From a bacterium (GTDB lineage: Bacteria > Zhuqueibacterota > Zhuqueibacteria > Residuimicrobiales > Krinioviventaceae): a stretch of DNA of 64,000 nt. The notes beneath the pieces were generated by a model that was given only the letters and a program-made list of their open reading frames with translations, ran no database searches and was not told the DNA's origin. The stretch lies in NCBI GenBank assembly GCA_963693055.1, contig OY843751.1, positions 2,210,248 through 2,274,247 of the forward strand, given 5' to 3'. The translations under genes and the position numbers were made by a program. Below, piece by piece: positions 1 through 20,606 of the stretch (its first letter is position 1; each line of letters begins with the position of its first letter).

Positions 1-531
1 TTCATTTGAAAATGTATCCAGCCTCCAGACCGGATTGGTGGTGTTACTAGACGCATAAATACCCAACCCACCGCCACTATCTGTAGTTATCTTAAGCGCG
101 TCATTTGTTCCTTGAGAATAATCAGTCTGTACAATTTCGAATTTACCATTTGGTGCAATTGTACCAATACCTACCTTGCCCCAACATAAAGTCATTACGT
201 CAATTAAGTAACCACTTTTATTTGTTTGAAAGGACATACGATTTCCGCTACTATAGTCATTTTCATATGTTGTGTAAATTTTTCCTGAAATAGCAGCAAC
301 TGCAGCTGGATCCTGTATTATATTGTTTGTTTTAAAACTTATATCAGCAACTGCTCTTACGGTATTACTAGTTTTATATAATGTTAGCAATGCATCCGGA
401 GAACTTGTCCCTAAACCAATTTTTCCAAGGGTTGTTGTTTTAACTGTTGAATCATCCCAAACATTACTTTGAGCTGTTAGTATAGATGTAATTGATATTA
501 AAATAGCAAAAATAATTAATTTTAATTTCAT
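1..531 (-). CDS. tail-fibre-like secreted paralog, 5' part (gene runs off window start)
   Basis: rc ATG at 529-531 with GAGGG RBS; translation MKLKLIIFAILISITSILTAQSNVWDDSTVKTTT...GIGT = signal peptide + DDxW..TTT..GIGT motif shared with paralogs; absent from ORF track because it has no stop inside window. Confidence 0.55.
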   Translation of the reverse strand, partial: MKLKLIIFAILISITSILTAQSNVWDDSTVKTTTLGKIGLGTSSPDALLTLYKTSNTVRAVADISFKTNNIIQDPAAVAAISGKIYTTYENDYSSGNRMSFQTNKSGYLIDVMTLCWGKVGIGTIAPNGKFEIVQTDYSQGTNDALKITTDSGGGLGIYASSNTTNPVWRLDTFSNE

Positions 532-557
532 GTTTTTGCCCTCATTGGTTTGTTAAC

Positions 558-1808
558 TCATTGTCCATTGGATTTATCAAATACCAGTTTTTCAATTATT
601 TGATTCTGTTTTTTATTTTCTTTCTCAAGCTCAATTACATACAAAGTCAATTCTTCAATCTTTTGCAAGAGCTTGGTTTGCATTTCACTGACCTGTATGC
701 CGTTTTCCTGCATTTCTTTTACAGAGGGGATTTCCGGCAGGTGCTTGTTTGCTTTAACGAACTGTTCTACGTGGTAAAGAGAGGGGAGGGCATAATCCTT
801 TTCGAAAACAAAATCCGCTCCGGCGTCTGCTTTTATAGTAATGTCCCGCGCGCTGATCTTGCCGTTAATGGTTAATTTTGCGTCTGTATCCGGTGAACTT
901 GTGCCAATGCAGACTTTGCCGTCATTATCAATTGCAATGCCTTCATCATCACCATCCCCGGAAATGTAATTTGAATTCAATTTAATATTGTCTGAACCAT
1001 TTATATCTATTTCTTTATTGATCTTAATATTTTGAGTGAAATTTATTATGCCATCCTGTTTAATCTCATAAATTTGAATGTCATCACCTTCTAATGCTTC
1101 TGACCATAATTCAAGATCATTATTATTTCCAGAACCGGTCCCTTCATATTTCCAATAATAACCATAATCATCTGTATTAGTACCGATCTTTAAATAAATA
1201 TCTTGATTATCAGGTGTTTGAATATCAATAGCTGTCCCTATTCCACCGCTAATACTACTAATAAATTGTTTAGAGTATACATTTTTAAAAAATTTTGTCA
1301 AAGAACCAATATTATAATAAAAATTTGTATTAGGTAATAAATTTCCTTCAGAAGTTATGATAAATCTTGGAGCATTGTTTGTCCAAAATTGTAAATCCCA
1401 ATTTTCCCGTAGTCTGAAATAACCAATTTTTGTATTTGCGTCTGTTAATAGACCTATTGAAAAACCATCTTGAGCAGTGTGACCGGAAGAGTCTGCAGTG
1501 AAATGTACATATGGTAATGTAGAGTCAAATACATGTAATTTCCGCTGTGGAAAACCACCTACACCTAAAGCTCCACTGATTGTTACATTACCGCCATCGT
1601 CTACACGAACACCTTCATTGTCACCATCATTTGACAGATAAAAATCATTCAGTTCAATGTTTTCATTTATTACTTCGGTAGTAACATTTTTTTTATCTCC
1701 CGGATTTGGGGAAGTATCTGAGGGATTATCCGCAGCTGTTAAAAATGCAGTTCCAATAAAAAGAATGAACAGAGTAAATCGTATTTGTCGTAATGATACA
1801 GAATACAT
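558..1808 (-). CDS. tail-fibre-like secreted protein, paralog family member (conserved C-terminal coiled-coil module)
   Basis: ORF 416 aa; signal peptide; NDGDNEGV..DGG.V motifs; C-terminal ...ADFVFEKDYALPSL.HVEQFVKANKHLPEIPS..EMQENG..VSEMQTKLLQKIEELTLYVIEL; GGGAGG RBS before ATG. Confidence 0.8.
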   Translation of the reverse strand: MYSVSLRQIRFTLFILFIGTAFLTAADNPSDTSPNPGDKKNVTTEVINENIELNDFYLSNDGDNEGVRVDDGGNVTISGALGVGGFPQRKLHVFDSTLPYVHFTADSSGHTAQDGFSIGLLTDANTKIGYFRLRENWDLQFWTNNAPRFIITSEGNLLPNTNFYYNIGSLTKFFKNVYSKQFISSISGGIGTAIDIQTPDNQDIYLKIGTNTDDYGYYWKYEGTGSGNNNDLELWSEALEGDDIQIYEIKQDGIINFTQNIKINKEIDINGSDNIKLNSNYISGDGDDEGIAIDNDGKVCIGTSSPDTDAKLTINGKISARDITIKADAGADFVFEKDYALPSLYHVEQFVKANKHLPEIPSVKEMQENGIQVSEMQTKLLQKIEELTLYVIELEKENKKQNQIIEKLVFDKSNGQ

Positions 1809-1854
1809 GTACGCCTCCCGAAAGTTTTATGAAATTATATAAAATGATTAGAGA

Positions 1855-1884
1855 TATTATTTAATTATTTCCCCAAATAATCCC
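1855..1884 (-). promoter_or_regulatory. conserved leader inverted repeat (TTATTT-GGGG-AAATAA variant)
   Basis: shared motif upstream of transcription-unit first genes. Confidence 0.5.
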
Positions 1885-1947
1885 ACATATGAAACGTACG
1901 AAAAAAATGATTTTTAATCAAGGAATGATAACAGGGTTTATAAGAAA

Positions 1948-1976
1948 AAAAGGGGGAAATTATTATTTCCCCCTTT
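1948..1976 (-). terminator. rho-independent terminator of gene 1991..3469
   Basis: AAAGGGGGAAATTATTATTTCCCCCTTTG hairpin followed by T-rich run. Confidence 0.6.
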
Positions 1977-1990
1977 GTGTATGAGGATAA

Positions 1991-3469
1991 TTATTTAGAG
2001 TTGATGATTGTTCTTAATTCTTGATTTTCGTTTTTCAGTTCAGATATTTCTTTTTTCATATCTATCATATACAAGGTCATTTCTTCAATTTTCTGCAAGA
2101 GTTTAGTTTGCATTTCACTCACCTGCACGCCGTTTTCTTGCATTTCCTGAGCGGAGGGGATTTCCGGCAGGTGTTTGTTTTCTTTAACGAACTGTTCTAC
2201 GTGGTCAAGAGAGGGGAGGGCATAATCCTTTTCGAAAACAAAATCCGCTCCGGCGTCCGCTTTGATAGTAATGTCCTGTGCGGTGATCTTACCGGCGACA
2301 GTGAGTTTGGAATCATTTTCTGGTGAACTTGGACCGATACAGACTTTTCCGTCAAAGTTGATTGAAAGACATTTATGTTCTCTTGTAAAAAAAGACATTT
2401 CATCAATTTGATGATCATAGTAAATTCTACCTCTTGTAACACTTGTATTACTACCAAATAAAATACAGCCTTTACCAGTATTGGGACATAATAAGCTGAT
2501 TCCTGTATTATTATTTGTTTCTAAAACCAGGTCATCGCTTGCACTGTTTGCTGGCATAGCCCCGGAACTCCCCATTCGTGAATGGATAGGATATAACGGA
2601 GAGGTGTTAATTCCCAGTTTATCGCTTACCATTACGTCCCCATCATTTTCAACCTGTACGCCTTCATTACTACCATCGTTTGATATAAAGTTAGAATTTA
2701 ACTTTATATTTCCATTAAATTGTATATTTCCGGTACCTGCTGGAGTAAGTTGAATACTGTTATTGTTATATAGTGCTTTAATATCCATGTAACCTTCTGC
2801 GTTCCATCCATAGCGTGCTACATCAGTATTATTTGATTTTATTGTAATCTCTGAAGTTTGTGGTCCTGTACCGCTTTTATTAAGAGTTAACAGGCTGGTA
2901 GGAAAAATTCCTATACCTATTTTATGAGTTATTTTTACATCGCCATCATCTTCAACAATAATACCTTCATCGTCACCATCATTAGAAATGTAATTACTGT
3001 TTAAATTAATATTCGAATTATATAGTATTACTTTATTATCAACAATTTGCAATCTTCTTTCTTGATAGTTAGTATTACCAGACCAAACATTAAATCCCTG
3101 ATATGTACCTGTTCCGCCACTACAGATGAATTGTAATCCTCCTGCTGCAGCATCACTAAACTGATACCCAAGCCATACATTATCATCATAATTTTGACCT
3201 GCAAAAGTACCCCCTATACCTGTAAATAGAGCTCTGCTGTTTGGTTGAGAAATTTTACTTATTATTCCACTATTATCACCCGGGCTTTTTACTTCAAAGA
3301 AATAAGTGGGGGAAACCCCTATACCCACTTTGTCGTTTGTAGTAATTTTATCTGTACTATCATTCACCCAGTCATCGGCAGATGTATCTTGGGCCAAAAT
3401 AAAATTGAAACAACATAATACCAGAATTATCGAGAACGACAAGTTTTTCCATATGGAATTGTTTCTCAT
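1991..3469 (-). CDS. tail-fibre-like secreted protein, paralog family member
   Basis: ORF-track ORF extends to 3583 but the GGGAGG RBS + signal peptide MRNNSIWKNLSFSIILVLCCFNFILAQDTSADDWV start at rc-ATG 3467-3469; same C-terminal module. Confidence 0.75.
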   Translation of the reverse strand: MRNNSIWKNLSFSIILVLCCFNFILAQDTSADDWVNDSTDKITTNDKVGIGVSPTYFFEVKSPGDNSGIISKISQPNSRALFTGIGGTFAGQNYDDNVWLGYQFSDAAAGGLQFICSGGTGTYQGFNVWSGNTNYQERRLQIVDNKVILYNSNINLNSNYISNDGDDEGIIVEDDGDVKITHKIGIGIFPTSLLTLNKSGTGPQTSEITIKSNNTDVARYGWNAEGYMDIKALYNNNSIQLTPAGTGNIQFNGNIKLNSNFISNDGSNEGVQVENDGDVMVSDKLGINTSPLYPIHSRMGSSGAMPANSASDDLVLETNNNTGISLLCPNTGKGCILFGSNTSVTRGRIYYDHQIDEMSFFTREHKCLSINFDGKVCIGPSSPENDSKLTVAGKITAQDITIKADAGADFVFEKDYALPSLDHVEQFVKENKHLPEIPSAQEMQENGVQVSEMQTKLLQKIEEMTLYMIDMKKEISELKNENQELRTIINSK

Positions 3470-3516
3470 CAAAGCCTCCCTTGAGAAAATAAAATTGAAT
3501 GAATAAAACAGAAAAT

Positions 3517-3545
3517 GTTTATTTGATAGACAGCCCCAAATAAAC
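3517..3545 (-). promoter_or_regulatory. conserved leader inverted repeat GTTTATTTG-N11-CAAATAAAC
   Basis: read directly; 9-bp arms. Confidence 0.5.
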
Positions 3546-3606
3546 CCACGATGAAAAGTACAGAATTTGGACATGGAAATCAATGTGTAAATTGGAAAAG
3601 ATAAAA

Positions 3607-3634
3607 AAATGACAACAGATTTCTGTTGTCATTT
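3607..3634 (-). terminator. terminator hairpin after gene 3643..5115
   Basis: AATGACAACAGATTTCTGTTGTCATT. Confidence 0.5.
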
Positions 3635-3642
3635 AATGTATT

Positions 3643-5115
3643 TTATTGCTCAAGGTCAATGATGCGGGATTTTAATGAGAAGATTTCGTTTTTCATTTTA
3701 TTGTTTTCACTTATTATTGCCATATTTTCTTTTTTCATTTCAATCATGTAAAGCGTTAGTTCTTCAATTTTTTGCAAGAGTTTAGTTTGCATTTCACTCA
3801 CCTGTACTCCGTTTTCCTGCATTTCCTGAGCGGAGGGGATTTCCGGCAGGTGTTTGTTTTTTTTAACGAACTGTTCTACGTGGTCAAGAGAGGGGAGGGC
3901 ATAATCCTTTTCGAAAACAAAATCCGCACCTCCGGCATCTGCTTTGATAGTAATGTCCTGTGCGCTGATCTTGCCGGCGACGGTGAGTTTGGAATCAGAT
4001 TCCGGTGAGTTTGTACCAATACTGACTTTACCATCAGATTTAATTGTAACTCCTGAAGTAGTTGAACCTGCTGTACCGATATACATTTCATCAGTTGGAT
4101 TGTAATAGTGTATTATTCCTCTACTTATTTGATCTTTATCACCAATATGAATTCCACCTACACCCTGAATACCGGTACCGGATTCTCCGGCAATTATACC
4201 TAATATAGAGTTATTCGTTGTTTCAATATTATTTTGAAATAATGCTACATGTGATCCTACCGATGGCGTGGCACCTTCACCATTCGGCCCGATAACATGT
4301 AATCTTTTTAAAGGATTTAATGTACCAAGTCCCAAAAATCCGTTTGAACTTTTTATAAACATTGCTTCTTTATGCGATCCACCGGCTCCAATTGCCAAAC
4401 CGGTTACACCATCTCCTCCACTTCGTATTATCGGATAAATGGATTGTGTCCCATCTGCCTTGTAGCCAATAATTAAACCGGATTCTGATGTGTTTGTTCT
4501 TCCGAACCATGAAACACTGTAATCTGTAGAAGAAATACCCCCATTTGATCTCACTTCAAAATTATAATTGGGGCTTCCGTTAATTCCCAATTTATTGCTT
4601 ATTATTACATCTCCATCATCTTCGACTGAAATACCTTCATCATCGCCGTCCCCTGAAATATAATTAGAGTTTATTGTAATATTACTGCCAAAGGATACTT
4701 TTCCATCCGATTTAATTGTGACTCCTGAAGTGGTTGAACCTGCTGTACCAATGTACATCTCATCAGTTGGATTGTAATAATGTATTATACCTCTATTTAT
4801 TTGATCTTTATCACCTATTTGAATGCCACCGACACCCTGAATTCCGGTACCAGATTCACCAGCAATAATTCCTAATACTGCGTTATTTGTAGATTCTACA
4901 TTGTTTTGAAATATTGCTACCTGTGATCCCAGCGATGGTATAGAACCTTCACCATTTGGACCGATAACATGTAATCTTTTTAAGGGATTTATTGTGCCAA
5001 TACCAACATTTGTTGTTGTTGTTGTATTCGTACCATTTGTAACCCAGTCATCATCACTGGCTAAAAGGTTCATAATATAAATAAAGAACAACAGAAAGCA
5101 GAGTTTGCATTTCAT
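3643..5115 (-). CDS. tail-fibre-like secreted protein, paralog with internal ~105-aa tandem duplication
   Basis: 490 aa; SP MKCKLCFLLFFIYIMNLLASDDDWVTNGTNTTTTTNVGIGT; duplicated block LNPLKRLHVIGPNGEG...TIKSDGKVS; conserved C-terminal module. Confidence 0.8.
   Translation of the reverse strand: MKCKLCFLLFFIYIMNLLASDDDWVTNGTNTTTTTNVGIGTINPLKRLHVIGPNGEGSIPSLGSQVAIFQNNVESTNNAVLGIIAGESGTGIQGVGGIQIGDKDQINRGIIHYYNPTDEMYIGTAGSTTSGVTIKSDGKVSFGSNITINSNYISGDGDDEGISVEDDGDVIISNKLGINGSPNYNFEVRSNGGISSTDYSVSWFGRTNTSESGLIIGYKADGTQSIYPIIRSGGDGVTGLAIGAGGSHKEAMFIKSSNGFLGLGTLNPLKRLHVIGPNGEGATPSVGSHVALFQNNIETTNNSILGIIAGESGTGIQGVGGIHIGDKDQISRGIIHYYNPTDEMYIGTAGSTTSGVTIKSDGKVSIGTNSPESDSKLTVAGKISAQDITIKADAGGADFVFEKDYALPSLDHVEQFVKKNKHLPEIPSAQEMQENGVQVSEMQTKLLQKIEELTLYMIEMKKENMAIISENNKMKNEIFSLKSRIIDLEQ
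3999..4989 (-). repeat. intragenic tandem duplication (two ~315-bp copies, ~85 % nt identity) in gene 3643..5115
   Basis: copies approx 3999-4314 and 4674-4989. Confidence 0.7.
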
Positions 5116-5149
5116 TTCATTCTCCCTATGAATTCAATAAATTTGCTAA

Positions 5150-6115
5150 TTAATTATTCTCTTTAAGTATCTCGATTTCCTTTTTTAATTCAATTACATA
5201 CAAAGTCAATTCTTCAATCTTTTGCAAGAGCTTGGTTTGCATTTCACTGACCTGTATGCCGTTTTCCTGCATTTCTTTTACAGAGGGGATTTCCGGCAGG
5301 TGCTTGTTTGCTTTAACAAATTTTTCAACATGATCAAGAGAGGGGAGGTTATAATCTTTTTCGAAAACAAAATCAGCGCCACCGGCATCGGCCTTGATGG
5401 TAATGTCCTGTGCGCTGATCTTGCCAGCAACAGAGAGTTTGGATTCATTTTCTTGTGAACTTGTTCCGATATAGACTCCATCGCTTGCAATTATCATTCT
5501 GTTTTTATTTTCTGTGAAAAACCAAATTTCATCAGTAGGGTGATTATAATAAATTCTTCCAACAGTTGGGTTGCCTTCATCTGCGAAAAAAATTGAACAT
5601 TGTCCACTACTAGGACTTAATAAACTGATCCCTGTATTATTATTTGTTTCTAAGACCAAGTCATCGCTTGCACTACTTGCTGTGGCTCCGGAACTCCCTA
5701 GTCGTGAATGTATATTATATAAAGGAGAAGTATTAAAACCAATTTTATTTTTAATAATTACATCTTTATCATCTTCAATTTCAATTGCTTCATTATTATT
5801 TGTTCCAATACTGAATGAATTAGTTGAGTGATTGTACCTGATATAGCCTCTGGCATTGTCCCCGGGATCCGTACCATCGGCGAAATAGATGGAACCAATC
5901 CCGCTTGTATTAGATGCAATAGTTAATCCCCCATTACCGCTTTCATAAATAACCAAATTGTCTGCGTCCGAATGATATATAGTTGTAGTATTGATACCAA
6001 TTCCAACACTTCCGGTTGTTGTTGTTGAAACAGATGAGCCTTCCCAGGTGTTTTGAGCCCATACAAAGCTGCCGAATAAAATTAAACACAAGAATGTGAT
6101 AGTTAATTGTCTCAT
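5150..6115 (-). CDS. tail-fibre-like secreted protein, paralog family member
   Basis: 321 aa; SP; TTTTGSVGIGINT; conserved C-terminal module; AAAGGAA RBS. Confidence 0.8.
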   Translation of the reverse strand: MRQLTITFLCLILFGSFVWAQNTWEGSSVSTTTTGSVGIGINTTTIYHSDADNLVIYESGNGGLTIASNTSGIGSIYFADGTDPGDNARGYIRYNHSTNSFSIGTNNNEAIEIEDDKDVIIKNKIGFNTSPLYNIHSRLGSSGATASSASDDLVLETNNNTGISLLSPSSGQCSIFFADEGNPTVGRIYYNHPTDEIWFFTENKNRMIIASDGVYIGTSSQENESKLSVAGKISAQDITIKADAGGADFVFEKDYNLPSLDHVEKFVKANKHLPEIPSVKEMQENGIQVSEMQTKLLQKIEELTLYVIELKKEIEILKENN

Positions 6116-6163
6116 GCTGTATTTCCTTTCTGAATTGTCGATGAGTTGTGATTTACGTAAAGT

Positions 6164-7678
6164 TTAATGACGTTCCAATTTCGAGAGTCTTGATTCAAGT
6201 GCTTTAATTTTTTTATTTTGTTCAATAATGTACAATGTCAATTCTTCAATTTTTTGTAAATGAAGAATTTGCATTTCACTGACCTGTATGCCGTTTTCCT
6301 GCATTTCTTTTACAGAGGGGATTTCCGGCAGGTGCTTGTTTGCTTTAACAAATTTTTCAACATGATCAAGAGAGGGGAGGTTATAATCTTTTTCGAAAAC
6401 AAAATCAGCGCCACCGGCATCGGCCTTGATGGTAATGTCCTGTGCGCTGATCTTACCGGCGACAGTGAGTTTGGAATCATTTTCTGGTGAACTTGGACCG
6501 ATACAGACTTTTCCGTCAAAGTTGATTGAAAGACATTTATGTTCTCTTGTAAAAAAAGACATTTCATCAATTTGATGATCATAGTAAATTCTACCTCTTG
6601 TAACACTTGTATTACTACCAAATAAAATACAGCCTTTACCAGTATTGGGACATAATAAGCTGATTCCTGTATTATTATTTGTTTCTAAGACCAGGTCATC
6701 GCTTGCACTGTTTGCTGGCATAGCCCCGGAACTCCCCATTCGTGAATGGATAGGATATAACGGAGAGGTGTTAATTCCCAGTTTATCGCTTACCATTACA
6801 TTTCCATCATAATCAATTTGAATACCTTCATTGCCACCATCACCAGATATAAAATTTGAATTCGTTCTGATGTTACCATTACATTGAATATATCCCGTAC
6901 CGGATGGGGTGAGAAGAATATTGTTATTACTATAAAGAGCTCTTATATCCAGATAACCACTAGCATTCCATCCATAGCGTGCCACATCTGTATTGTTTGA
7001 TTTAATAGTAATCTCTGAAGTTTGTGCTCCTGTACCGCTTTTGTTAAGGGTTAACAGGCTGGTAGGAAAAATTCCTATACCAATTTTATTTGTTATTTTA
7101 ACATCACCATCATCTTCGATTTGAATTCCTTCATTATCACCGTCATTGGAAATATATTTGCTATTTAATTGAATGTTACCCAGGTTTAAACCAAGGTTAC
7201 CTGTTTCATCAATTTCAATTGTTTTTCTCCATACACCATTTATTCTTTGGAAAATTCCAAATTTAGTATCTTCAGAACCTGCAGTCAGGTCAATATATTG
7301 CATACCAATACCACCCATATGCGCAGTACTGCCGGATAAATTTCTTGCCCCAAATAAATAACCCGCATACGTATTATTTAGTTGACTGTCATTAAATGTC
7401 TCGAATCCCCATGAACTCCCATTAGCACCAAAATTTGTATCAGAATATGTAAATACTGCTCGTATTTCAGCCTCACCACTTGCACCTGTCCAGGTTCCGT
7501 TGTTCATTTCCAAGCCTCCATTAGAAATTTCAACATTCCCCGTTGTTGTTGTATTGCCACTTCCATCAGTTGTCCAGCTGTCGTCGGTAGTATCATCAGC
7601 CGCCGAAAGTTTTATCGGATTCATTGCGAAAACAATTATTACAATAACTAACAGAATGAAACAGGATTGCCTTTTCAT
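6164..7678 (-). CDS. tail-fibre-like secreted protein, mosaic paralog
   Basis: 504 aa; SP; DDSWTTDGSGNTTTTGNV; 3' third is a near-exact nucleotide mosaic of genes 5150..6115 and 1991..3469. Confidence 0.8.
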   Translation of the reverse strand: MKRQSCFILLVIVIIVFAMNPIKLSAADDTTDDSWTTDGSGNTTTTGNVEISNGGLEMNNGTWTGASGEAEIRAVFTYSDTNFGANGSSWGFETFNDSQLNNTYAGYLFGARNLSGSTAHMGGIGMQYIDLTAGSEDTKFGIFQRINGVWRKTIEIDETGNLGLNLGNIQLNSKYISNDGDNEGIQIEDDGDVKITNKIGIGIFPTSLLTLNKSGTGAQTSEITIKSNNTDVARYGWNASGYLDIRALYSNNNILLTPSGTGYIQCNGNIRTNSNFISGDGGNEGIQIDYDGNVMVSDKLGINTSPLYPIHSRMGSSGAMPANSASDDLVLETNNNTGISLLCPNTGKGCILFGSNTSVTRGRIYYDHQIDEMSFFTREHKCLSINFDGKVCIGPSSPENDSKLTVAGKISAQDITIKADAGGADFVFEKDYNLPSLDHVEKFVKANKHLPEIPSVKEMQENGIQVSEMQILHLQKIEELTLYIIEQNKKIKALESRLSKLERH

Positions 7679-7725
7679 GGAAAATCTCCCTCAAATTTAT
7701 GAATGTTTAAATGATTGAAAAGGTA

Positions 7726-7753
7726 TTATTTGATAACTTCCCCAAATAATCCC
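7726..7753 (-). promoter_or_regulatory. conserved leader inverted repeat
   Basis: TTATTTG-N10-CAAATAA; whole intergenic region about 95 % identical to 1855-1976. Confidence 0.5.
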
Positions 7754-7817
7754 ACATATAAAACGTACGAAAAAAAGGTTTTTTAATCAAGAAATGATAA
7801 TAGGAATTATAAGAAGA

Positions 7818-7845
7818 AAGGGGTAAATCATTATTTACCCCTTTT
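7818..7845 (-). terminator. rho-independent terminator of gene 7858..9206
   Basis: AAAGGGGTAAATcattATTTACCCCTTTT. Confidence 0.6.
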
Positions 7846-7857
7846 ACAGGAAGAAAA

Positions 7858-9206
7858 CTATTTAGAAGTGATAATTGCTTTTAATTCCTGATTTTCGTTT
7901 TTTAAGTCTGAAATGGTATTATTCTGTAATTCAATTTTTTTATTCATATCAATTACATACAATGTCAGTTCTTCGATTTTTTGCAAAAGTTTGGTTTGCA
8001 TTTCACTCACCTGCACACCGTTTTCCTGCATTTTCTGTGAGGAAGGTATTTCCGGCAGGTGTTTGTTTTGTTGTATAAATTGTTCAACATGCTGAAGAGA
8101 GGGAAGGGCATAATCCTTTTCGAAAATAAAATCCGCTCCGGCGTTTGCTTTGATAGTTATGTCTTGGGCACTGATTTTACCGGCAACGGTGAGTCTGGCA
8201 TTTACGTCAGAAGATGTGGTACCTATACATAAATTCCCGCCATTAAAATACGAATTTCCATTGGGATGAAGTTGTACTGTAATATTACCTTCATTGGTTG
8301 TACAGTTATACAGTCTCAACACATTGTTGGACAAAACCATTTGCGGTACCCAGCTAATTCCTCCTGAAGCATGACCCCATTTAAAGATTTCACCATCTCT
8401 AAAACCCCTGAACCGGAACTCTCCGGTACCCGCGTCTATATAATCAAGGAATAATCCAGGGTACAGATTATCATTTGTTGCACCAATGGCAGTATTTCCT
8501 CGTACATCCAGTTTAGAATCAGTATGATATACTGAAGTTGAACCGATTATTACGTTACCATCCGAGTCGATCCTCATTTTTTCCTGTCCCAATGTGTTGA
8601 ATGACATTGAATTGTCTGTATTATCATATCTGATTTGACCTTCCGAATCTTTTTCTTCATCACCAAACAGGATGCCAGCAACATCGTTAAGCTCAGTGCC
8701 GGTACTTACAAGACTGAGCCATGTATTTGCGCCATTTTGTATAACAAGTTTTCTGCCCGGATTGTTTGTTCCGATACCAACATTTCCACCGGTAAAATAA
8801 GTATTGCCGCTGGGATGAAGCTGTACGGTGATATTGCCTTCATTGGTTGTACTGTTATACAGTCTCAGCACATTGTTGGATAAAACCATTTGCGGTACCC
8901 AGCTAATTCCTCCTGAAGCATGACCCCATTTAAAGATTTCACCATCTCTTATGCCCCTGAACCGGAACTCTCCGGTACCCGCGTCTATATAATCAAGGAA
9001 TAATCCAGGGTACAGATTATCATTTGTTGTACCAATGGCACTATTTCCCCGCACATCCAGGATATACCCCGTGTAATTGGTAGATGTGCCTATACCCACA
9101 CTGCCGTTAGTACTGGTTTCTACAGATGAATTGTTCCAATAGTCCACTGCCAAAATAGTGTTCAAAAACCTGCAACCATTAAAATAATGAAGACCAATTT
9201 TTTCAT
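7858..9206 (-). CDS. tail-fibre-like paralog, frameshifted (signal peptide in -1 frame relative to body)
   Basis: body ORF (7858..9255) lacks a signal peptide; rc-ATG at 9204-9206 (overlapping upstream stop as ATGA) encodes MKKLVFIILMVAGF then hits TGA; a 1-nt slip at the T5 run (A5 at 9164-9168 on + strand) joins it to ...LNTILAVDYWNNSS..GSVGIGT. Confidence 0.6.
8217..9063 (-). repeat. intragenic duplication (two ~300-bp copies, ~95 % identity) in gene 7858..9206
   Basis: copies approx 8217-8517 and 8763-9063 (protein ...DVRGN.AIG.TNDNLYPGLFLDYIDAGTGEFRFRG... twice). Confidence 0.7.
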
Positions 9207-10912
9207 AGAGATTCCCTTCCAGTATTATTGAATTTAGTTGTTTTTTCGAGTTCATCAATTCTTGCTTCTAGTTTTTTATTATATTTATCCTGATTAATAA
9301 TATACAGGGTCAATTCTTCAATCTTTTGCAAAAGTTTGGTTTGCATTTCACTCACCTGCACACCGTTTTCCTGCATTTCCTGTGAGGAAGGTATTTCCGG
9401 CAGGTGTTTGTTTTGTTGTATAAATTGTTCAACATGCTGAAGAGAGGGAAGGGCATAATCCTTTTCGAAAACAAAATCCGCGCCACCAGCATCGGCCTTG
9501 ATGGTAATATCCTGAGCACTGATCTTGCCGGCAACAGTGAGTTTGGAACCTGATTCAGGATTGCTGCAGCCGAGAATCACTGAACCATCATAGAGTATCC
9601 TCATTCCTTCATTATTTGTACCAACTCCTAAAATTAATGAACCGTTTTCGGTTGACCTGCCTCTTAAAACAGTATCCCCTGCTTTGCTTCCATTAATGAA
9701 ATTATCATTACCAGTTGCTATTCCAAAGAAAGCCCTGTCAGAATCAATATTGTCAGTATTATTTGTGTTAAGCCGGATTTGAGGTGTGGTTGTTTTGGTT
9801 ATCAGAATTATTCCTTCATCCAAATGCATCTTTTGCAAAGGATTGGTAATACCGATCCCTAAATTCCCTCCAAACCTTTGTAGAATCAATGGTTTCACTC
9901 CAACTCCGTCGTGAGTAGCTTGTATAAATCCCTGATCATTTGTTATATCAAAGCCTATTTGCATTTCTTTAGCTGCGTTTGTTTGCCCTCCGATTATCAG
10001 TTGCGGATTGCTTGTTCCATTCCAATCGCCACGAATTGTCAGAACAGCATTTGACGATCCTGTTGCCTGAACTGTTCCTCCCAATACTACATCACCATTT
10101 ACATTTAATTTTGTGGTAGGAGAGGGCGTACCAATACCCAGATTCCCATTTTCATCCAGTACCATTCTGTTTATTTCAGCGTCAACATCTCTGAAAATCA
10201 GTTTGCCTGCTCCTGATGTAGCAACGTTTGCGGTACTACCAATCATATATGACTTACCGTTGGAATTGGGTTCCGCATTTAAATAAATCCCAGGTCCATA
10301 CCCATTACCTGCCCTGGTTACTTTTATATTTCCATCAACATTCAATCGTTCAGTTAAAGTTGTGGTGCCTATTCCAACATTACCCGTTATATTGGTGTCC
10401 CAGTTTAGATCTATTCCATAATCATCAATGATAATTGCATCATTATAATACCAATTATTTCCTGTTCCAAGTTTATCATAATATCTTCTTGTGCCTATAT
10501 ACATTCTGCCTGTTGCATTGCTATTATTGGTATTTGCTGGAGTAACCAGGATTCGCCCTTGTCCCCATTGTCCTGAACCGTCGGTTGATGAAGGTGCTGT
10601 AAACTCTAACATTGAACCTGATTCTGTAGTTCTTGAAGTATTATTGGCATGTATGATAAAAGCATTATTCTGATCTGTAACAGTGTTTATTGTAGTTGCT
10701 GATGTAAAAACGAACCGGGCACGTCCGCCGGAAAAGTCAAGTTTGTAAGTTGGAGTGATTCCAATACCTACATTAGTTGTCAAAGTAGTTGTACTGCTGC
10801 CGGATGTTTCCCAATCATCATTTGTTGTGTCTTGTGCAGCAAGGTTATAAAAGAAGCAACTAATAAAAAACAGGATATTGATTAATCCAAATAGCCATTG
10901 ATTCGTTTTCAT
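9203..10912 (-). CDS. tail-fibre-like secreted protein, paralog family member
   Basis: ORF to 10984 in track; GGAGGAAAGG RBS and SP MKTNQWLFGLINILFFISCFFYNLAAQDTTNDDWETS favour start 10912; conserved C-terminal module. Confidence 0.75.
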   Translation of the reverse strand: MKTNQWLFGLINILFFISCFFYNLAAQDTTNDDWETSGSSTTTLTTNVGIGITPTYKLDFSGGRARFVFTSATTINTVTDQNNAFIIHANNTSRTTESGSMLEFTAPSSTDGSGQWGQGRILVTPANTNNSNATGRMYIGTRRYYDKLGTGNNWYYNDAIIIDDYGIDLNWDTNITGNVGIGTTTLTERLNVDGNIKVTRAGNGYGPGIYLNAEPNSNGKSYMIGSTANVATSGAGKLIFRDVDAEINRMVLDENGNLGIGTPSPTTKLNVNGDVVLGGTVQATGSSNAVLTIRGDWNGTSNPQLIIGGQTNAAKEMQIGFDITNDQGFIQATHDGVGVKPLILQRFGGNLGIGITNPLQKMHLDEGIILITKTTTPQIRLNTNNTDNIDSDRAFFGIATGNDNFINGSKAGDTVLRGRSTENGSLILGVGTNNEGMRILYDGSVILGCSNPESGSKLTVAGKISAQDITIKADAGGADFVFEKDYALPSLQHVEQFIQQNKHLPEIPSSQEMQENGVQVSEMQTKLLQKIEELTLYIINQDKYNKKLEARIDELEKTTKFNNTGRESL

Positions 10913-10943
10913 CTTTCCTTTCCTCCAATGAGATAGAATTTGA

Positions 10944-12695
10944 TTAATTGTTTTGAATTGTTTTGATCCATTTTTTGATTTCACTGTTTTCTTTTTTTAT
11001 GGAATCATTTTCTTTTTTTAATTCAATGACGTATAATGTTAATTCTTCTATTTTTTGTAACAGATTTGCCTGGAACTCACCAATATCAATTCCCTTATTT
11101 GTTGCTTCATCTGCGGAAGGAATACCGGGCAGGTGTTTATTCTGGTGGATAAATGCTTCGGTTTCTTCTATAGACATGAGGTCATAATCATCTTTAAATA
11201 CATAATCAGGTAATGATTCCTGCTGTAACTGGATTTCCTGTGCTTTGATTTTATTGTTTACAACCAGTTCTTTATTTACAGTTACCTGGTTATCCGTATT
11301 TATTGACATTGATACATTATCAGATTCATCGAGAAAAATTATATTATTCCCTTTAATACCCACGGGAGTTGTCCAATCGTTACCGTTATATGCGTCCCAT
11401 AGCATCGTACTTAGTCCACTATTATAATATAATCGTCCTTTTAACAATCCATTACTATTTATACCAATCGAGCCATTAATATCCAGAGTATGGGTGGATT
11501 CCATATTGATACCCAATTTATTTATCTGTGTATAAGCATTTTCCAGATTTATATCAAAAATATTTACATAATTAGAACCACGGATAAATAAATGTTTTGA
11601 GGTTCCTGATTGCTCTTGAATATAAAAATTTCCATTTGCCACTGACATAGACCAATCCATATTTACATCATCTTCTGAAAACCATATAACCGGAGAAGCA
11701 CTTTTAATTTGAAATGAATAATCTGGAGATATTCCAATACCTATTTTGTTGGAAATAAATATATCTCCATCATTTTCCACTTTAATTCCTTCATCATCTC
11801 CATCACCTGATAAAAAATTGGAATTCAGTATGATTTTACCAGTAAGTAAATTCAGATCACCACCTGCATTAATATCAATTAACGGTGTTGAGAAATTTGT
11901 AAATCTAAAGAGAGGTCTGGCATTGACTGTAGTAAATGTTCCGTTTATGGGATCGCCACTGTGAAGTTGACCAATAAATGTTATTAGGGGAACATTTCCA
12001 ATGTCATATTCACTTGTAGTCATTCCCTGGAATATTAATGAATGCCTGGTACTGGATGGAGTTGTACCATAAAAAGCTGGTTCAAATATTCCGGTAGAAT
12101 ATGTAGAATTTTTAATTCCGAATTGATATCCGGTTGCATCACTTACTGTCGCTTTTATAATACTTTCACGGCTCGTTGATTCTGCTAAAGAAACAATATC
12201 AATGGTTGAATTAATATTTGTTGTATTAACGCCTAATTTTCCATTTTCATTAACCCTGAATAATTGTGAGTTTATGTCATTATTATGACTTATAATTAAT
12301 GCAGCATTTTCGTCATTTGTATCCGAATCCAGGTCGATAATGTAATTTCTTAAACCCGATGTCCAGGCATCCCTTGTATCTGTTAGTCGTGTACCGAATA
12401 TTGCATTATTGATTTTTATTTTGTCTAAACCATATGTAGTTCCAATTGTTAATTTTTCTGTTGGATTAATTCCGATTCCCAGTTTACTACTTGCGACTAC
12501 ATCGCCATCATTTTCAACAGTGATTCCTTCATTACCTCCATCATTGGACAGGTAATACCCATTGAGAGAAATGTTTTCGGTAAGCACTTCATCAATACTG
12601 TTACTTGAAGAATTCTCAACAGCAACCAAAAAATTTACCATTGAAAAAAAGAACAACAAAAACAGTTTACCTGTACACATTGTAAGGTTTTTCAT
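10944..12695 (-). CDS. tail-fibre-like secreted protein, divergent paralog
   Basis: SP MKNLTMCTGKLFLLFFFSMVNFLVAVENSSS at rc-ATG 12695 with AAGGTGGG RBS; divergent C-terminal module ...NKHLPGIPSADE..LLQKIEELTLYVIELKKEN. Confidence 0.75.
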   Translation of the reverse strand: MKNLTMCTGKLFLLFFFSMVNFLVAVENSSSNSIDEVLTENISLNGYYLSNDGGNEGITVENDGDVVASSKLGIGINPTEKLTIGTTYGLDKIKINNAIFGTRLTDTRDAWTSGLRNYIIDLDSDTNDENAALIISHNNDINSQLFRVNENGKLGVNTTNINSTIDIVSLAESTSRESIIKATVSDATGYQFGIKNSTYSTGIFEPAFYGTTPSSTRHSLIFQGMTTSEYDIGNVPLITFIGQLHSGDPINGTFTTVNARPLFRFTNFSTPLIDINAGGDLNLLTGKIILNSNFLSGDGDDEGIKVENDGDIFISNKIGIGISPDYSFQIKSASPVIWFSEDDVNMDWSMSVANGNFYIQEQSGTSKHLFIRGSNYVNIFDINLENAYTQINKLGINMESTHTLDINGSIGINSNGLLKGRLYYNSGLSTMLWDAYNGNDWTTPVGIKGNNIIFLDESDNVSMSINTDNQVTVNKELVVNNKIKAQEIQLQQESLPDYVFKDDYDLMSIEETEAFIHQNKHLPGIPSADEATNKGIDIGEFQANLLQKIEELTLYVIELKKENDSIKKENSEIKKWIKTIQNN

Positions 12696-12736
12696 AGACC
12701 CACCTTGATTTTTTGATATGATTAAATAATGAAAGT

Positions 12737-12765
12737 GTTTATTTGATTTGAATCCCCAAATAAAT
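12737..12765 (-). promoter_or_regulatory. conserved leader inverted repeat GTTTATTTG-N10-CAAATAAA
   Basis: read directly. Confidence 0.5.
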
Positions 12766-12826
12766 CCACAATTATTATACAAAAATGGACTCTATTATCC
12801 AATTACTAAATGACGATTTGCAAATA

Positions 12827-12859
12827 AAAAAGGGACAATTTATTAAAACTGTCCCTTTT
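12827..12859 (-). terminator. rho-independent terminator of gene 12889..14265
   Basis: AAAAGGGACAatttattaaaacTGTCCCTTTT. Confidence 0.6.
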
Positions 12860-12888
12860 AAAATCAGTAAATTATTGTGGATCAATAA

Positions 12889-14265
12889 TTATTTTGTTTT
12901 TAGTAAAATATTTTTTTCCAGTTTTTCAATTTTTTTATTCATCTCTATCATGTGCAACGTCAGTTCTTCAATCTTTTGTAAAAGTTTGATCTGCATTTCA
13001 CTCACCTGTACTCCGTTTTCCTGCATCTCTTTTGCAGAGGGGATTTCCGGCAGGTGCTTGTTTTCCAGAACATACTTTTCAACATGTGCAAGAGAAGGGA
13101 GGGCATAATCATTTTTGAAAACAAAATCCGCTCCGGCGTCCACTTTGATGGTAATATCCCGTGCGCTGATTTTGCCGGCAACTGTGAGTTTCGCATCAGC
13201 AACAGGAGATGTAGTTGATGTACCAATACAAACTTGTCCATTAGAATCGATTGAGATGCCTTCATCATCGCCATCACCTGAGATATAGTTGTTATTTGTA
13301 TTAATCGTTCCTTGTAGATTAATATTGCCAGCTGAGCCCGCAACCAACTTTAACATTCCTGGAGAAATTGCATGGTTTTCACCATAGCTTACAATATATG
13401 ACCCCCTGTTTGAACTGATCCCGCCTCCACCGGAAATAGCGACTGATTTTTCATCATTCCCTGTTGTTGTGTTTGTTCTTAAAGTTGTTGTTGATAGTCT
13501 TCCAATAAATGCACCGTTACATTCGATATTGCCTGAGAATGAAGCTATACCTGAATCTGATATTTGTAATCCTTCATCGTCACCATCATTTGAAATAAAA
13601 TTATTATTCATCTCAATATTTGTATTTGTAAACCTGAATGTTCCTTCATTTTCATCAAATCTTCCAACTTCAATGCCATTATTTACATGAAAAACAATAT
13701 CTGCTATATTCCCGGATGAAAAGCCCAAAGCACCTGATGAAGTCATTTTTACAGCAGAGCCTCCCCAACCATTGAAATTCAGTGAAGCTGAATTGTTTAA
13801 TTTAGAAAATTTAACATCCCCATCATTCCCTATTTGAATACCTTCATTATCCCCATCATTTGAAAGATAATTCGAATTTAATATTAAATTTCCATTATTA
13901 AGATGGATATTATCATTTTGATCAATTGATAATGAAATTCTTCCGGCAGTACTGTTAACTATTTGAAAGTAATCTAAACCTGTACCTGAACCGTTGACTC
14001 GCATTGTCCATTCTCTGGCGTCATTTTGTAAACGTAATGTTGCATTTTGGTTCAATGTTGTTGATTTAATTCTCAAGTCAGCCACAGATGTTTGAATGTC
14101 AAAATCATAATTAGGAGATAAACCAATACCCACATTGCCAGTTGTTGTTGTATTGCCATTTCCATCAGTTACCCAGTTATCATCTGATGCTTGTATAGTA
14201 CATGAATAAAAAATAGCAATAAAGATACTGATGAAAAATTTTTTTAACATGGATACAGATTTCAT
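12889..14265 (-). CDS. tail-fibre-like secreted protein, paralog family member
   Basis: 458 aa; SP; SDDNWVTDGNGNTTTTGNVGIG; GDGDDEGI repeats; conserved C-terminal module; GGGAGG RBS. Confidence 0.8.
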   Translation of the reverse strand: MKSVSMLKKFFISIFIAIFYSCTIQASDDNWVTDGNGNTTTTGNVGIGLSPNYDFDIQTSVADLRIKSTTLNQNATLRLQNDAREWTMRVNGSGTGLDYFQIVNSTAGRISLSIDQNDNIHLNNGNLILNSNYLSNDGDNEGIQIGNDGDVKFSKLNNSASLNFNGWGGSAVKMTSSGALGFSSGNIADIVFHVNNGIEVGRFDENEGTFRFTNTNIEMNNNFISNDGDDEGLQISDSGIASFSGNIECNGAFIGRLSTTTLRTNTTTGNDEKSVAISGGGGISSNRGSYIVSYGENHAISPGMLKLVAGSAGNINLQGTINTNNNYISGDGDDEGISIDSNGQVCIGTSTTSPVADAKLTVAGKISARDITIKVDAGADFVFKNDYALPSLAHVEKYVLENKHLPEIPSAKEMQENGVQVSEMQIKLLQKIEELTLHMIEMNKKIEKLEKNILLKTK

Positions 14266-14317
14266 GTTCGCCTCCCTAAATACATTAAAGAATTTGTGTA
14301 AATAGAATGATTAATGT

Positions 14318-14346
14318 GTTTATTTAATATACATCCCCAAATAAAT
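14318..14346 (-). promoter_or_regulatory. conserved leader inverted repeat
   Basis: GTTTATTTA-N11-CAAATAAA downstream of promoter 14356-14384. Confidence 0.5.
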
Positions 14347-14355
14347 CCTCGAAAG

Positions 14356-14384
14356 AATATAGATATATATTTTGAGTGAATCAA
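14356..14384 (-). promoter_or_regulatory. sigma70-like promoter for the unit 12889..14265
   Basis: minus strand TTGATT-17 nt-TATATT. Confidence 0.45.
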
Positions 14385-14400
14385 TGAATTGTTGAAAAGA

Positions 14401-14432
14401 AAAAGGGGAGACGTGGAATAATTTCTCCCCTT
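14401..14432 (-). terminator. rho-independent terminator of gene 14449..15444
   Basis: GGGGAGAcgtggaataatTTCTCCCC + TT. Confidence 0.55.
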
Positions 14433-14448
14433 AATAGTTAATAGGATT

Positions 14449-15444: not shown

Positions 15445-15632
15445 TCATGTTCTCCTTATAAAATGAGATTTTTTATTTATTTTTTAAAAAAAATATGCAA
15501 TTTGTATGGGAATCCAATAAATTTTAAGGAAATAAACTTAACTTTTTAAGCTAATTTTTATAATTAATACGTGTTGACATTTTTTTCAAGAATGTAATAT
15601 TTTAATTAACTTTTAAACGAACAGTTGTTGCT

Positions 15633-15895
15633 TTATCCAATACTGAGTTTTCCGCTTATAAACACATCTCCATCATTTCTATTTGAGATCTTCATTATCT
15701 CCATCATTAAACAGGTAATCCTGTTGAGAGATATGTTATCATCGAGTATAAGCATATCTTCAGTATTGTTATAATTTTGGCTGTTAATCCTATTGCCGGT
15801 ATTTTTTGCATTTTTAACAGCAATGAACAAGTTTCCCAATAAAAAAAAATGAGCAACAAAAATAATCTGCCAGTAAGCATTGCCATGTTTTTCAT
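15633..15895 (-). pseudogene. 5' remnant of a tail-fibre-like paralog (signal peptide + first repeat, frameshifted, body deleted)
   Basis: two overlapping small ORFs MKNMAMLTGRLFLLLIFF... and ...ISNRNDGDVFISGKLSIG resemble the N-terminus of 10944..12695 (MKNLTMCTGKLFLLFFF...NDGGNEGITVENDGDVVASSKLGIG); preceded by a copy of the family leader motif. Confidence 0.6.
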
Positions 15896-15934
15896 TGTAC
15901 CGACTTAATTTTTTTATAATTGATTGAAGGAAAG

Positions 15935-15965
15935 TGTTTATTTGTTTTACAACACGAAATAAACC
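15935..15965 (-). promoter_or_regulatory. conserved leader inverted repeat upstream of paralog remnant
   Basis: GTTTATTTG-N12-(C)AAATAAAC. Confidence 0.4.
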
Positions 15966-17760: not shown

Positions 17761-17761
17761 T

Positions 17762-19700: not shown

Positions 19701-19718
19701 GGCATTGGACGCTGGTTT

Positions 19719-20585: not shown

Positions 20586-20606
20586 TACTTTTATATGAGG
20601 ATCATA

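Follow-up and report, generated by a model that had tools for sequence, protein, structure and literature searches.

The window, a stretch of 64,000 nucleotides free of N and drawn from a contig of 6,535,007 bp, opens with a family of paralogous genes that occupies positions 1-15990. The copies form a tandem array in direct orientation, all on the minus strand: ten are complete, one is cut by the start of the window, and one persists as a pseudogene fragment; the first-pass annotation, which counted 11 paralogs, was about right. The truncated gene, g0, is represented by its 5′ part (1-531), and the minus-strand translation of 1-600 opens with MKLKLIIFAILISITSILTAQSNVWDD, identical to P0022 (488 aa). 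The complete reading frames are g1 (558-1808, 416 aa, P0007, confirmed by translation), g2 (1991-3469, 492 aa, P0002), g3 (3643-5115, 490 aa), g4 (5150-6115, 321 aa, P0003), g5 (6164-7678, 504 aa), g6 (7858-9255, 465 aa), g7 (9203-10912, 569 aa, P0015), g8 (10944-12695, 583 aa), g9 (12889-14265, 458 aa, P0004), and g10 (14449-15444, 331 aa, P0016); for g2, g4, and g5 the ORF list agrees with the limits assigned at first pass. Internal duplications are present in g3 (4025-4328 and 4697-5000, 86% identical) and in g6 (8219-8511 and 8768-9060, 90%), and g8 is the most diverged member of the array.

Nine of the ten complete ORFs begin with signal peptides, identified by eye. The exception is g6, in which no signal peptide is recognizable and whose first 53 nt coincide with the 3′ end of g7. 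An upstream motif is common to six genes of the array, and terminator-like hairpins lie 3′ of g2, g3, g6, and g9. The pseudogene fragment (15480-15990, minus strand) is frameshifted; it retains a signal peptide and the first NISLN..DGDV.ISGKL.IG motif and lies behind a separate copy of the upstream motif. Beyond it the array is bordered by the remnant of a tyrosine recombinase (16496-16798, minus strand; Pfam PF00589), not intact and reduced to its C-terminal 100 aa, which cover profile positions 93-168 of 172. Adjoining the remnant is an IS3-family transposase (16930-18046, minus strand; Pfam rve and HTH_21), with orfA at 17762-18046 and orfB at 16930-17625. Six more paralogs, located elsewhere on the same 6.5-Mb contig, also share modules with the array.

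The products have a common layout, in which variable N-terminal and central shaft modules lead to a C-terminal domain that is helical, conserved, and about 80 codons long, with a variable coiled-coil tail behind it. To judge from these sequences they are putative Sec-secreted fibre proteins that resemble phage tail fibres and the mosaic adhesive trimer (MAT) fibres of Bdellovibrio. The N-terminal regions display 30-45% identity, and the best partner differs from copy to copy. The C-terminal domain has no Pfam model but is very widespread: about 37,000 clusters (50% identity) match it. It also ends tail-associated proteins on two contigs of uncultured phages, L007, with tail-protein and endolysin genes alongside, and L019, with genes for an adaptor and a sheath. 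Searches of GenBank phages returned no match to the domain, and the window contains no phage structural genes. Assignment as a Peptidase S74 domain, an auto-processing intramolecular chaperone with a Ser-Lys dyad, was considered and rejected: S74 gives no Pfam match even at E ≤ 10, no S74 chain occurs among the PDB matches of the C-terminal profile, and the family consensus S-R-E-V-K is replaced by S-A-Q-D-I in the window copies. The UniRef name of one homologue, P0118, is "Peptidase S74 domain-containing", which serves as a lead only.

Exact-match enumeration and stringent local alignment locate tracts of near-perfect identity between particular pairs of paralogs. The most extensive joins g5 to g2 (6448-6799 and 2284-2635): 352 nt comprising exact matches of 241 nt (6448-6688 and 2284-2524) and 110 nt (6690-6799 and 2526-2635), separated by a single synonymous mismatch at 6689/2525. 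Its product is the final shaft module, which runs from VMVSDKLGINTSP to KLTVAGKI. A tract with one mismatch had been noted here at first pass, at 6461-6795 and 2287-2632; its true extent is slightly longer. In the second tract, which falls inside the block coding for the conserved C-terminal domain, g5 and g4 are identical over 187 nt (6268-6454 and 5236-5422); the earlier limits, 6270-6461 and 5228-5420, were nearly right for g5 and are off by 2-8 nt for g4. The third, an exact match of 128 nt between g1 and g4 (631-758 and 5190-5317), lies just where it had been placed. Sequences g1 and g5 also share an identical 82 nt (677-758 and 6268-6349), and this segment is exactly the intersection of the g5/g4 and g1/g4 tracts, as two sequential transfers would be expected to produce.

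Exact matches and a three-way comparison establish that g5 is a mosaic, bearing out its description as a patchwork. Read in the direction of transcription, it is unique from 7678 to 7180, about 80-90% like g2 from 7177 to 6800, equal to g2 from 6799 to 6448, equal to g4 from 6454 to 6268, and unique again in its coiled-coil tail from 6267 to 6164. The switch from g2 identity to g4 identity is confined to a 7-nt interval, 6448-6454. In 50-nt bins the flanks of the tracts show identities of 54-90%, typically near 80%, as had been estimated; for g4-g5 and g1-g4, divergence is seen to either side of the tract. Reading frames remain open across all tract boundaries. The ends of the tracts vary by pair and share no common site.

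That the paralogs are old is evident at silent sites. In the conserved block pS (synonymous differences per synonymous site) is 0.45-0.6 for most pairs, so that identity at silent positions lies beyond the reach of protein-level constraint; within the three tracts of 128-352 nt there are 0-1 differences, whereas other paralogs differ by 15-25% in the same columns. A GENECONV-type comparison of the paralogs, proposed in the first-pass annotation, rejects chance for five pairs in the block and for g2-g5. For the block, a permutation test of the Sawyer type on 149 polymorphic sites of 256 nt, corrected for all 45 pairs, yields global p values of <0.0002 for g4-g5, 0.0004 for g1-g4, 0.007 for g6-g7, 0.022 for g1-g5, and 0.025 for g9-g10. 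The longest run of identical codons in g2-g5 is 80, against a mean maximum of 12 and a largest value of 35 in 100,000 permutations (p ≤ 1e-5); with synonymous differences alone the value is 84, against a permutation maximum of 57.

Older tracts are found in other pairs: g6 and g7 (7979-8136 and 9324-9481, 158 nt with 2 mismatches), g2 and g3 (2081-2248 and 3760-3927, 168 nt with 5 mismatches), and g9 and g10 (13118-13276 and 14693-14851, 159 nt with 8 mismatches). In local alignments the identities form a series, from 100% for g1-g4 and g4-g5 through 99.5% for g2-g5, 98.7% for g6-g7, and 97% for g2-g3 to 95-96% for g9-g10 and g1-g2. The graded tracts of 95-99% indicate that the process is recurrent, and from this age series it is reasonable to infer that conversion is ongoing. 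No tracts involve g8.

The conserved block also carries a compositional footprint. GC3 (GC content at third codon positions) is about 0.2-0.25 outside the block and doubles within it, rising to 0.42-0.57 in three of its four 20-codon bins, the fourth being at 0.30; the value for the block is lowest in g8. A similar rise is seen in L004, an independent array of ten copies, and the rise is weak in arrays of two to four copies and in single-copy genes. The contrast is based on two large arrays, and since copies within one array are not independent, the Mann-Whitney p overstates the evidence. Such a pattern is predicted by GC-biased gene conversion, whose occurrence in bacteria is still debated (PMC4450053), and a GC3 peak over the recombining block fits that process.

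Taken together, the array displays the features by which ectopic gene conversion is recognized: tracts longer than chance would give, a patch structure, and paralogs much older than the tracts. We consider it very probable, from the pattern of sequence identity, that the tracts arose by repeated, recent, non-reciprocal homologous recombination between old tandem paralogs. The first-pass annotation had favored recent recombination over simple old duplication, and this distinction holds: the paralogs are old, the patches have diverged flanks, and the sequence closest to g5 changes from g2 to g4 in a space of 7 nt. Homology for strand exchange would be supplied by the conserved 3′ block, about 80-90% identical between copies, and by shorter linker motifs between shaft modules; exchange would follow the general RecA pathway, and heteroduplex repair or a double crossover would then replace a segment of 130-370 nt in one copy with that of another. 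Three such events, g1↔g4, g4↔g5, and g2↔g5, account for the tracts first noticed. The expected outcome is a C-terminal domain homogenised in patches, while shaft modules, C-terminal-domain alleles, and tails are brought together in new ways. The dependence on RecA, the direction of each transfer, and the selective value of shuffling, if any, we infer from the DNA alone.

Shared exact tracts in the same block also occur in independent assemblies of other taxa, reaching 110 nt in L001 and 77 nt in L004. In the related array L004 the tract test reaches nominal significance only (pairwise p 0.002-0.01, global p ≥ 0.34), and generality of conversion across the family is only suggested.

Unequal reciprocal crossing-over of misaligned tandem copies, followed by duplication or deletion, would leave crossover joints that might be taken for tracts. 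The tandem, direct arrangement is suited to such events, and some of their likely traces are visible: a recurring unit of 3′ tail, terminator, and intergenic spacer (1842-2313 and 7709-8201, 80% identical), a g6 that lacks a signal peptide and abuts g7, and a pseudogene fragment at the edge of the array. A single crossover, however, keeps one flank similar, and the g4-g5 and g1-g4 tracts are diverged on both sides, which requires a conversion patch or two crossovers. Unequal crossing-over has probably shaped the copy number of the array without explaining the tracts, and as their source it is unlikely.

It is less likely still that collapse of paralogs during assembly, or mis-mapping of short reads during polishing, manufactured the identical tracts, although three of them are perfect or nearly so and the first-pass annotation had itself raised the possibility. 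They lie in a contig of several megabases with no N in the window and every frame open, and with surroundings about 80% identical, reads of 130-370 nt would not mis-map there. Collapse would not give the graded tracts of 95-99% in other pairs, and from the GC3 footprint it follows that exchange has long been at work in precisely this block. The exact tracts in the same block of L001 and L004 come from independent assemblies of other taxa.

Nor does a dedicated machine, whether a shufflon-like recombinase, a system of silent cassettes and an expression site, or a diversity-generating retroelement (DGR), seem a credible source. The recombinase remnant at the array border and the surface-fibre character of the products, one homologue of which (P0093) is elsewhere annotated as a shufflon PilV adhesin, might bring a shufflon to mind, but what is left of that recombinase is its last 100 aa beside an IS3 element, inversion is unavailable to copies that all lie on one strand, and the tract ends share no site. 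The earlier phrase "cassette exchange" is apt if taken loosely, for the shuffling of modules. It does not extend to a programmed silent-cassette system of the pilE/pilS, vlsE, tprK, or msp2 type, in which a single expression site draws on truncated, promoterless donors: all ten ORFs of the array are complete, signal peptides are present in nine, six genes have the upstream motif and four have terminators, and the copies are not promoterless. No reverse transcriptase domain was found in window ORFs of at least 120 aa, and the substitution spectra of the repeats have no adenine specificity, which argues against a DGR. Selection on the nucleotide sequence itself, exerted for instance through an RNA or regulatory site embedded in the genes or through an antisense ORF, can be virtually dismissed, for although antisense ORFs of about 100 aa overlie the block at 561-875, 2021-2326, and 12785-13108, only three of ten copies have one of at least 100 aa, Rfam returns no match, and the identity is specific to pairs, the other paralogs being diverged in the same columns.

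That tandem gene families of bacteria undergo conversion is textbook knowledge, and the mechanism is not new; it is the fibre family that is new and uncharacterised. The array is nevertheless a very clean case from a single genome, with sharp breakpoints, three nested events, and a series of tract ages. Visible shuffling of fibre modules makes it a good entry point for asking what these Bacteroidota-type fibres bind, and the GC3 peak, confined to the recombining block, offers a simple mark by which GC-biased conversion among bacterial paralogs can be tested. We suggest tentatively, as a minority reading, that the C-terminal block may have a dual role, serving in the protein as a module for fibre assembly or registration, one that phage tail proteins share, and in the DNA as a handle for the recombination that shuffles a large repertoire of secreted fibres. 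Such a role would liken the repertoire to the MAT set of a predator or of an adhesin. If it were true, the doubled GC3 of the block, which in two unrelated lineages seems to grow with the size of the array, would represent a rare instance of GC-biased conversion at the level of bacterial paralogs.

Exchange of this kind has counterparts in several known systems. In the opa genes of Neisseria and the babA/babB genes of Helicobacter pylori, full-length expressible paralogs swap short segments by homologous recombination and generate mosaic alleles without a dedicated recombinase; the loci are dispersed, in host-adapted pathogens under immune selection. Complete paralogs and short segments are common to those systems and to this one, but the present copies stand in tandem, and the organism is an uncultured bacterium of the FCB group. 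Mosaics of phage tail fibres arise by exchange at conserved motifs that border variable modules. The breaks in the array are likewise at conserved motifs beside variable modules, and its C-terminal domain ends phage tail proteins, but it is chromosomal paralogs of one bacterium that recombine.

Among the closest known systems are the MAT fibres of Bdellovibrio bacteriovorus (PMC10769870), which also comprise a large within-genome set of signal-peptide-bearing, phage-tail-fibre-like proteins with modular "mosaic" domains. The family profile A1 matches PDB entries 8OND (Bd2133, E = 2.5e-21), 8OML (8.8e-12), 8OL4 (1e-6), 8ON4 (1.9e-6), and 8OJN (1e-5), and the shaft repeat G-N-V-G-I-G-T..P..K-L-x-V-x-G, a predicted and putatively trimeric β-prism, is homologous. 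All MATs have a conserved, β-rich N-terminal domain of about 130 aa directly after the signal peptide and a C-terminal tip that varies; here, in contrast, the conserved domain is C-terminal and the N-terminal and central parts vary. An S74 domain, present in 13 of 21 MATs, was not detected in the window paralogs, and conversion tracts at the nucleotide level do not figure in the passages of that account consulted.

[quoted passage not shown] The conserved stretch is central in lpl and near the 3′ end here, the products of this array are fibre-like proteins and not lipoproteins, and short patches in one genome take the place of rearrangements revealed by comparison of strains. The 3′-part and intergenic unit shared by non-adjacent positions of this array, a single pair in a single genome, recalls the lpl unit but ends before the coding region of the next ORF. 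In both families, complete paralogs stand in tandem on one strand, and a highly conserved stretch within each ORF provides the site, in this array the probable site, of homologous recombination by which the variable parts are shuffled.

A tandem array of fibre-protein paralogs occupies positions 1–15990 of the window, with every copy on the minus strand. Numbered upward, the copies are g0 (1–531, the 5′ part of a gene that runs past the window start and encodes the family member P0022), g1 (558–1808), g2 (1991–3469), g3 (3643–5115), g4 (5150–6115), the mosaic gene g5 (6164–7678), g6 (7858–9255), g7 (9203–10912), the most diverged copy g8 (10944–12695), g9 (12889–14265) and g10 (14449–15444). 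At the array edge lies a frameshifted piece of one more paralog (15480–15990), which retains the signal peptide and first repeat motif and has its own upstream motif. The border also holds a tyrosine recombinase remnant (last 100 aa only, 16496–16798) that adjoins an IS3-family element (16930–18046; orfA 17762–18046, orfB 16930–17625). Six further paralogs, compared as proteins only, are encoded outside the window on the same 6,535,007-bp contig; one of them, P0008, combines a g1-like N-terminus, a centre like that of the family member P0018, and a g7-like tail. Intragenic duplications of a shaft module of about 300 nt are present in g6 (8219–8511 and 8768–9060, 90% identity) and g3 (4025–4328 and 4697–5000, 86% identity).

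The identical tracts between paralogs reported in the first-pass annotation were all recovered by exact-match enumeration. In the pair g2 and g5, 2284–2524 equals 6448–6688 (241 nt) and 2526–2635 equals 6690–6799 (110 nt), so that the combined 352 nt contain a single mismatch, which is synonymous. Exact identity also joins g4 and g5 (5236–5422 and 6268–6454, 187 nt), g1 and g4 (631–758 and 5190–5317, 128 nt), and g1 and g5 (677–758 and 6268–6349, 82 nt). The coordinates first proposed lie within a few bases of these, except on the g4 side of the g4–g5 tract, where they are 2–8 nt off. Beyond the tracts, identity in the same gene pairs is 54–90% per 50-nt bin and typically about 80%, as had been claimed for the flanks. 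A three-way display shows g5 identical to g4 over 6268–6454 and to g2 from 6448 upward; the partner therefore changes within 7 nt. The 82-nt g1–g5 tract coincides exactly with the stretch where the g1–g4 and g4–g5 tracts overlap, and two sequential transfers would explain these three identities, with a third for g2–g5. Stringent local alignment revealed older tracts in g6–g7 (7979–8136/9324–9481, 158 nt, 2 mismatches), g2–g3 (2081–2248/3760–3927, 168 nt, 5 mismatches), g9–g10 (13118–13276/14693–14851, 159 nt, 8 mismatches) and g1–g2 (724–846/2154–2276, 123 nt, 5 mismatches). Tract partners are mostly neighbours or no more than 5 kb apart. Such a gradation of identity, from 100% to 95%, reads as the trace expected of a recurrent process.

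To assess chance and constraint, the final ~160 codons of each of the 10 complete genes were placed in a codon alignment. A Sawyer/GENECONV-type test, which the first-pass annotation had suggested as a check on its reading, was applied to the 256-nt ungapped part of the conserved block, the 3′ coding stretch common to all copies that encodes the C-terminal domain. With the order of its 149 polymorphic sites permuted and a correction made for the full set of 45 pairs, five pairs gave significant global p values: g4–g5 (<0.0002), g1–g4 (0.0004), g6–g7 (0.007), g1–g5 (0.022) and g9–g10 (0.025). The g2–g5 tract lies mostly outside these 256 nt and was tested separately by runs of identical codons. 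Its longest run is 80 codons, against a mean maximum of 12 and a largest value of 35 in 100,000 permutations; when only synonymous differences at amino-acid-identical codons were counted, the run was 84 against a permutation maximum of 57. Within the conserved block, most pairs show a proportion of synonymous differences of 0.45–0.6, and comparisons with g8 give 0.66–0.9. Thus the paralogs are old, and because silent divergence is this high in most pairs, identity at silent sites is not explicable by selection on the protein. The identity is moreover pair-specific, the remaining copies differing by 15–25% over the same columns. The mosaic pattern is therefore confirmed, and its attribution to recent recombination between paralogs, as opposed to old duplication alone, is supported by the agreement of permutation tests, silent-site divergence and the sharp switch of partner.

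Base composition in the conserved block may carry a further mark of this history. Third-codon-position GC content (GC3) over ~79 codons per paralog (e.g., 6218–6478 in g5) is 0.42–0.54 in nine copies, about twice the 0.19–0.35 found elsewhere in the same genes, and drops to ~0.2 on either side. Relative to the DFVF motif, mean GC3 is 0.19–0.33 across the upstream bins (codons −200 to −21), 0.57 at −20 to −1, 0.30 at 0 to 19, 0.54 at 20 to 39, 0.42 at 40 to 59, and 0.18 in the tail (60 to 79). The diverged copy g8 has no shared tracts and the lowest block GC3 (0.32). A ten-copy array on contig L004 (6826–16339) displays a stronger contrast than the window, 0.51–0.66 versus 0.24–0.31; in two- to four-copy Flavobacterium arrays and in the single-copy genes of viral contigs the block exceeds the rest by only 0.06 to 0.07 on average. 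The nominal p value for the contrast, 4e-8, rests on only two large arrays and overstates the case, because copies within one array are not independent. GC-biased gene conversion has been proposed for bacteria (PMC4450053), and it is possible that the GC3 peak is its footprint.

Most probably the tracts arose through general homologous recombination, with tandem copies misaligned or looped. Exchange would be initiated in the conserved 3′ block; in g2–g5 it would have ended at the edge of the last shaft module, where a conserved linker motif lies (..DG.V.VSDKLGIN..). The outcome would be non-reciprocal patches of 130–370 nt, which could homogenise the C-terminal domain piecemeal and generate new combinations of shaft modules, C-terminal-domain alleles and tails. 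When the out-of-window paralogs are compared as proteins, they display this modularity too, P0008 being an example.

Unequal crossing-over has probably shaped the array as well. The product of g6 has no signal peptide, although its nearest paralog, P0017, has one (..FVNIVFAVDYWNN vs ..RFLNTILAVDYWNN), and the gene directly abuts g7, starting within the last 53 nt of that gene (9203–9255); recombination or deletion seems to have removed the head of this copy. A 3′-tail-plus-spacer unit is present at both 1842–2313 and 7709–8201, a recurrence reminiscent of the lpl cluster of S. aureus (PMC2568036). Crossing-over does not, however, account for patches with diverged sequence on both sides, for which gene conversion is the preferred reading. 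An assembly or polishing artefact could in principle create identical tracts, but this is unlikely: their surroundings are only ~80% identical, reading frames remain open, identity is graded among the other tracts, and the GC3 footprint implies that the conserved block has long been subject to exchange. In independent assemblies, too, copies share exact tracts within this block (110 nt on contig L001, 77 nt on L004). The pair-specific identity, together with an empty Rfam scan, contradicts an embedded RNA or an antisense gene; Rfam and tRNA scans were empty over the whole window. Plus-strand antisense ORFs of ~100 aa (561–875, 2021–2326 and 12785–13108) overlap the block in g1, g2 and g9 only and are probably a by-product of its composition. 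A shufflon, a diversity-generating retroelement and a cassette system each fail the defining features tested, and no reverse transcriptase was found in the window.

Silent cassettes are ruled out by the arrangement of complete genes in several transcription units, which follows from terminator-like hairpins 3′ of g2, g3, g6 and g9 together with motifs upstream. A palindromic motif, GTGGrTTTATTTGGGG-N8-10-AAATAAaCAC, lies ~60–70 nt upstream of start codons on the minus strand, before g1 (1860–1895), g2 (3505–3547), g5 (7730–7765), g8 (12725–12767), g9 (14306–14348) and the pseudogene fragment (15924–15966). This putative element may bind a regulator common to these genes or form part of a promoter. 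It is missing upstream of g3, g4, g6 and g7, which look operonic. A sigma-70 promoter scan was uninformative (76 sites versus 75 expected).

Nine of the ten complete products begin with a signal peptide. The paralogs have no match in Pfam or NCBIfam and only weak tail-fibre matches in PHROGs; a literature search on the family in Bacteroidota returned nothing specific. Their common C-terminal stretch of about 80 aa, located in the last ~95 aa (e.g., 5150–5440) and with the consensus ..KLTVAGKIsAqDItIKadaGaDFVFEKDYaLPSL.hVEqFvk.NKHLPEIPS..EMQENGvQVSEMQtKLLQKIEELTLY.I, is followed by a variable coiled-coil tail. The domain itself has no match in Pfam or NCBIfam, and its profile found no meaningful match among PDB sequences and none in GenBank phages; by sequence it does not qualify as an S74 chaperone domain. 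Its predicted structure contains three helices (pLDDT 76–91 from about residue 28), and a Foldseek search of the PDB with this model gave no match (lowest E 2.9). The AlphaFold model of the g4 monomer was poor (pLDDT 62) and for that reason was left out of the fold search. The domain profile matched 37,407 clusters at 50% identity, which looks like a large family that Pfam does not model. Two or three copies may occur in one protein, as in the family member P0012. Tail-associated proteins on uncultured phage contigs also terminate in the domain: on L007 (7635–8300) it neighbours an endolysin and a tail protein of 1326 aa, and on L019 (57–8315) it closes a protein of 2752 aa encoded beside a head–tail adaptor and tail sheath. 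Since the domain stays constant among fibres that otherwise vary, we take it, with moderate confidence, to be a fibre assembly or registration module and not a binding tip.

At least 10 tandem copies of the family occur on L004 (6154–16396), from an unrelated Bacteroidetes MAG, where two C-terminal-domain types alternate along the array. Eight copies of the first type are 85–95% identical in the block; the two of the second are 85% identical to each other and ~65% to the other eight. Conversion tracts there reach nominal significance only (global p ≥0.34), so that conversion across the whole family is only suggested, and we do not claim it as family-wide.

Beyond the array the window is ordinary chromosomal sequence of a probably Bacteroidota-like bacterium of the FCB group, encoding TonB-dependent receptors, glycoside hydrolases and proteins that carry C-terminal sorting domains for type IX secretion; no phage structural genes were found in it. 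A housekeeping-like radical SAM protein has best matches at 81–83% identity, with mixed FCB-group MAGs ranking next. A second rve-type transposase ORF lies at 39282–40103. The ORF at 19456–20252 (+) opens with an Rhs-core-like motif (..DPAGQGFSPYVYCGNNPLIMVDPDGEF), continues into an unassigned tail of ~150 aa and follows a short ORF that resembles an Rhs repeat (..YQYSQKELDSDIGLYYTP); with no Pfam match, it looks from its sequence like an orphan polymorphic-toxin tip. Five ORFs at 18107–25222 likewise have no Pfam match. A bacterial aeRF1-like protein of baeRF family 3 (26556–27269, +; E=3e-28) is encoded beside a LuxR-type response regulator (25623–26285, +). Genes for type-IX-secreted proteins and for pectin degradation (GH28, oligogalacturonate-lyase-like) flank a pair of adjacent HTH-containing DUF1670 proteins (54711–56343, +).

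Gene conversion, the mechanism proposed for this array, is already known; the interest of the case lies in the clarity of the example, in an uncharacterised and very widespread fibre family, and in the GC3 footprint. Searched against the PDB, the family profile matched mosaic adhesive trimer (MAT) fibres of Bdellovibrio bacteriovorus over the shaft repeat G-N-V-G-I-G-T..P..K-L-x-V-x-G (8OND, Bd2133, E=2.5e-21; 8OML, 8.8e-12; also 8OL4, 8ON4 and 8OJN). MATs are phage-tail-fibre-like trimers, displayed at the surface and diverse in their tips (PMC10769870). The stretch common to all paralogs is a different part, at the C-terminus.
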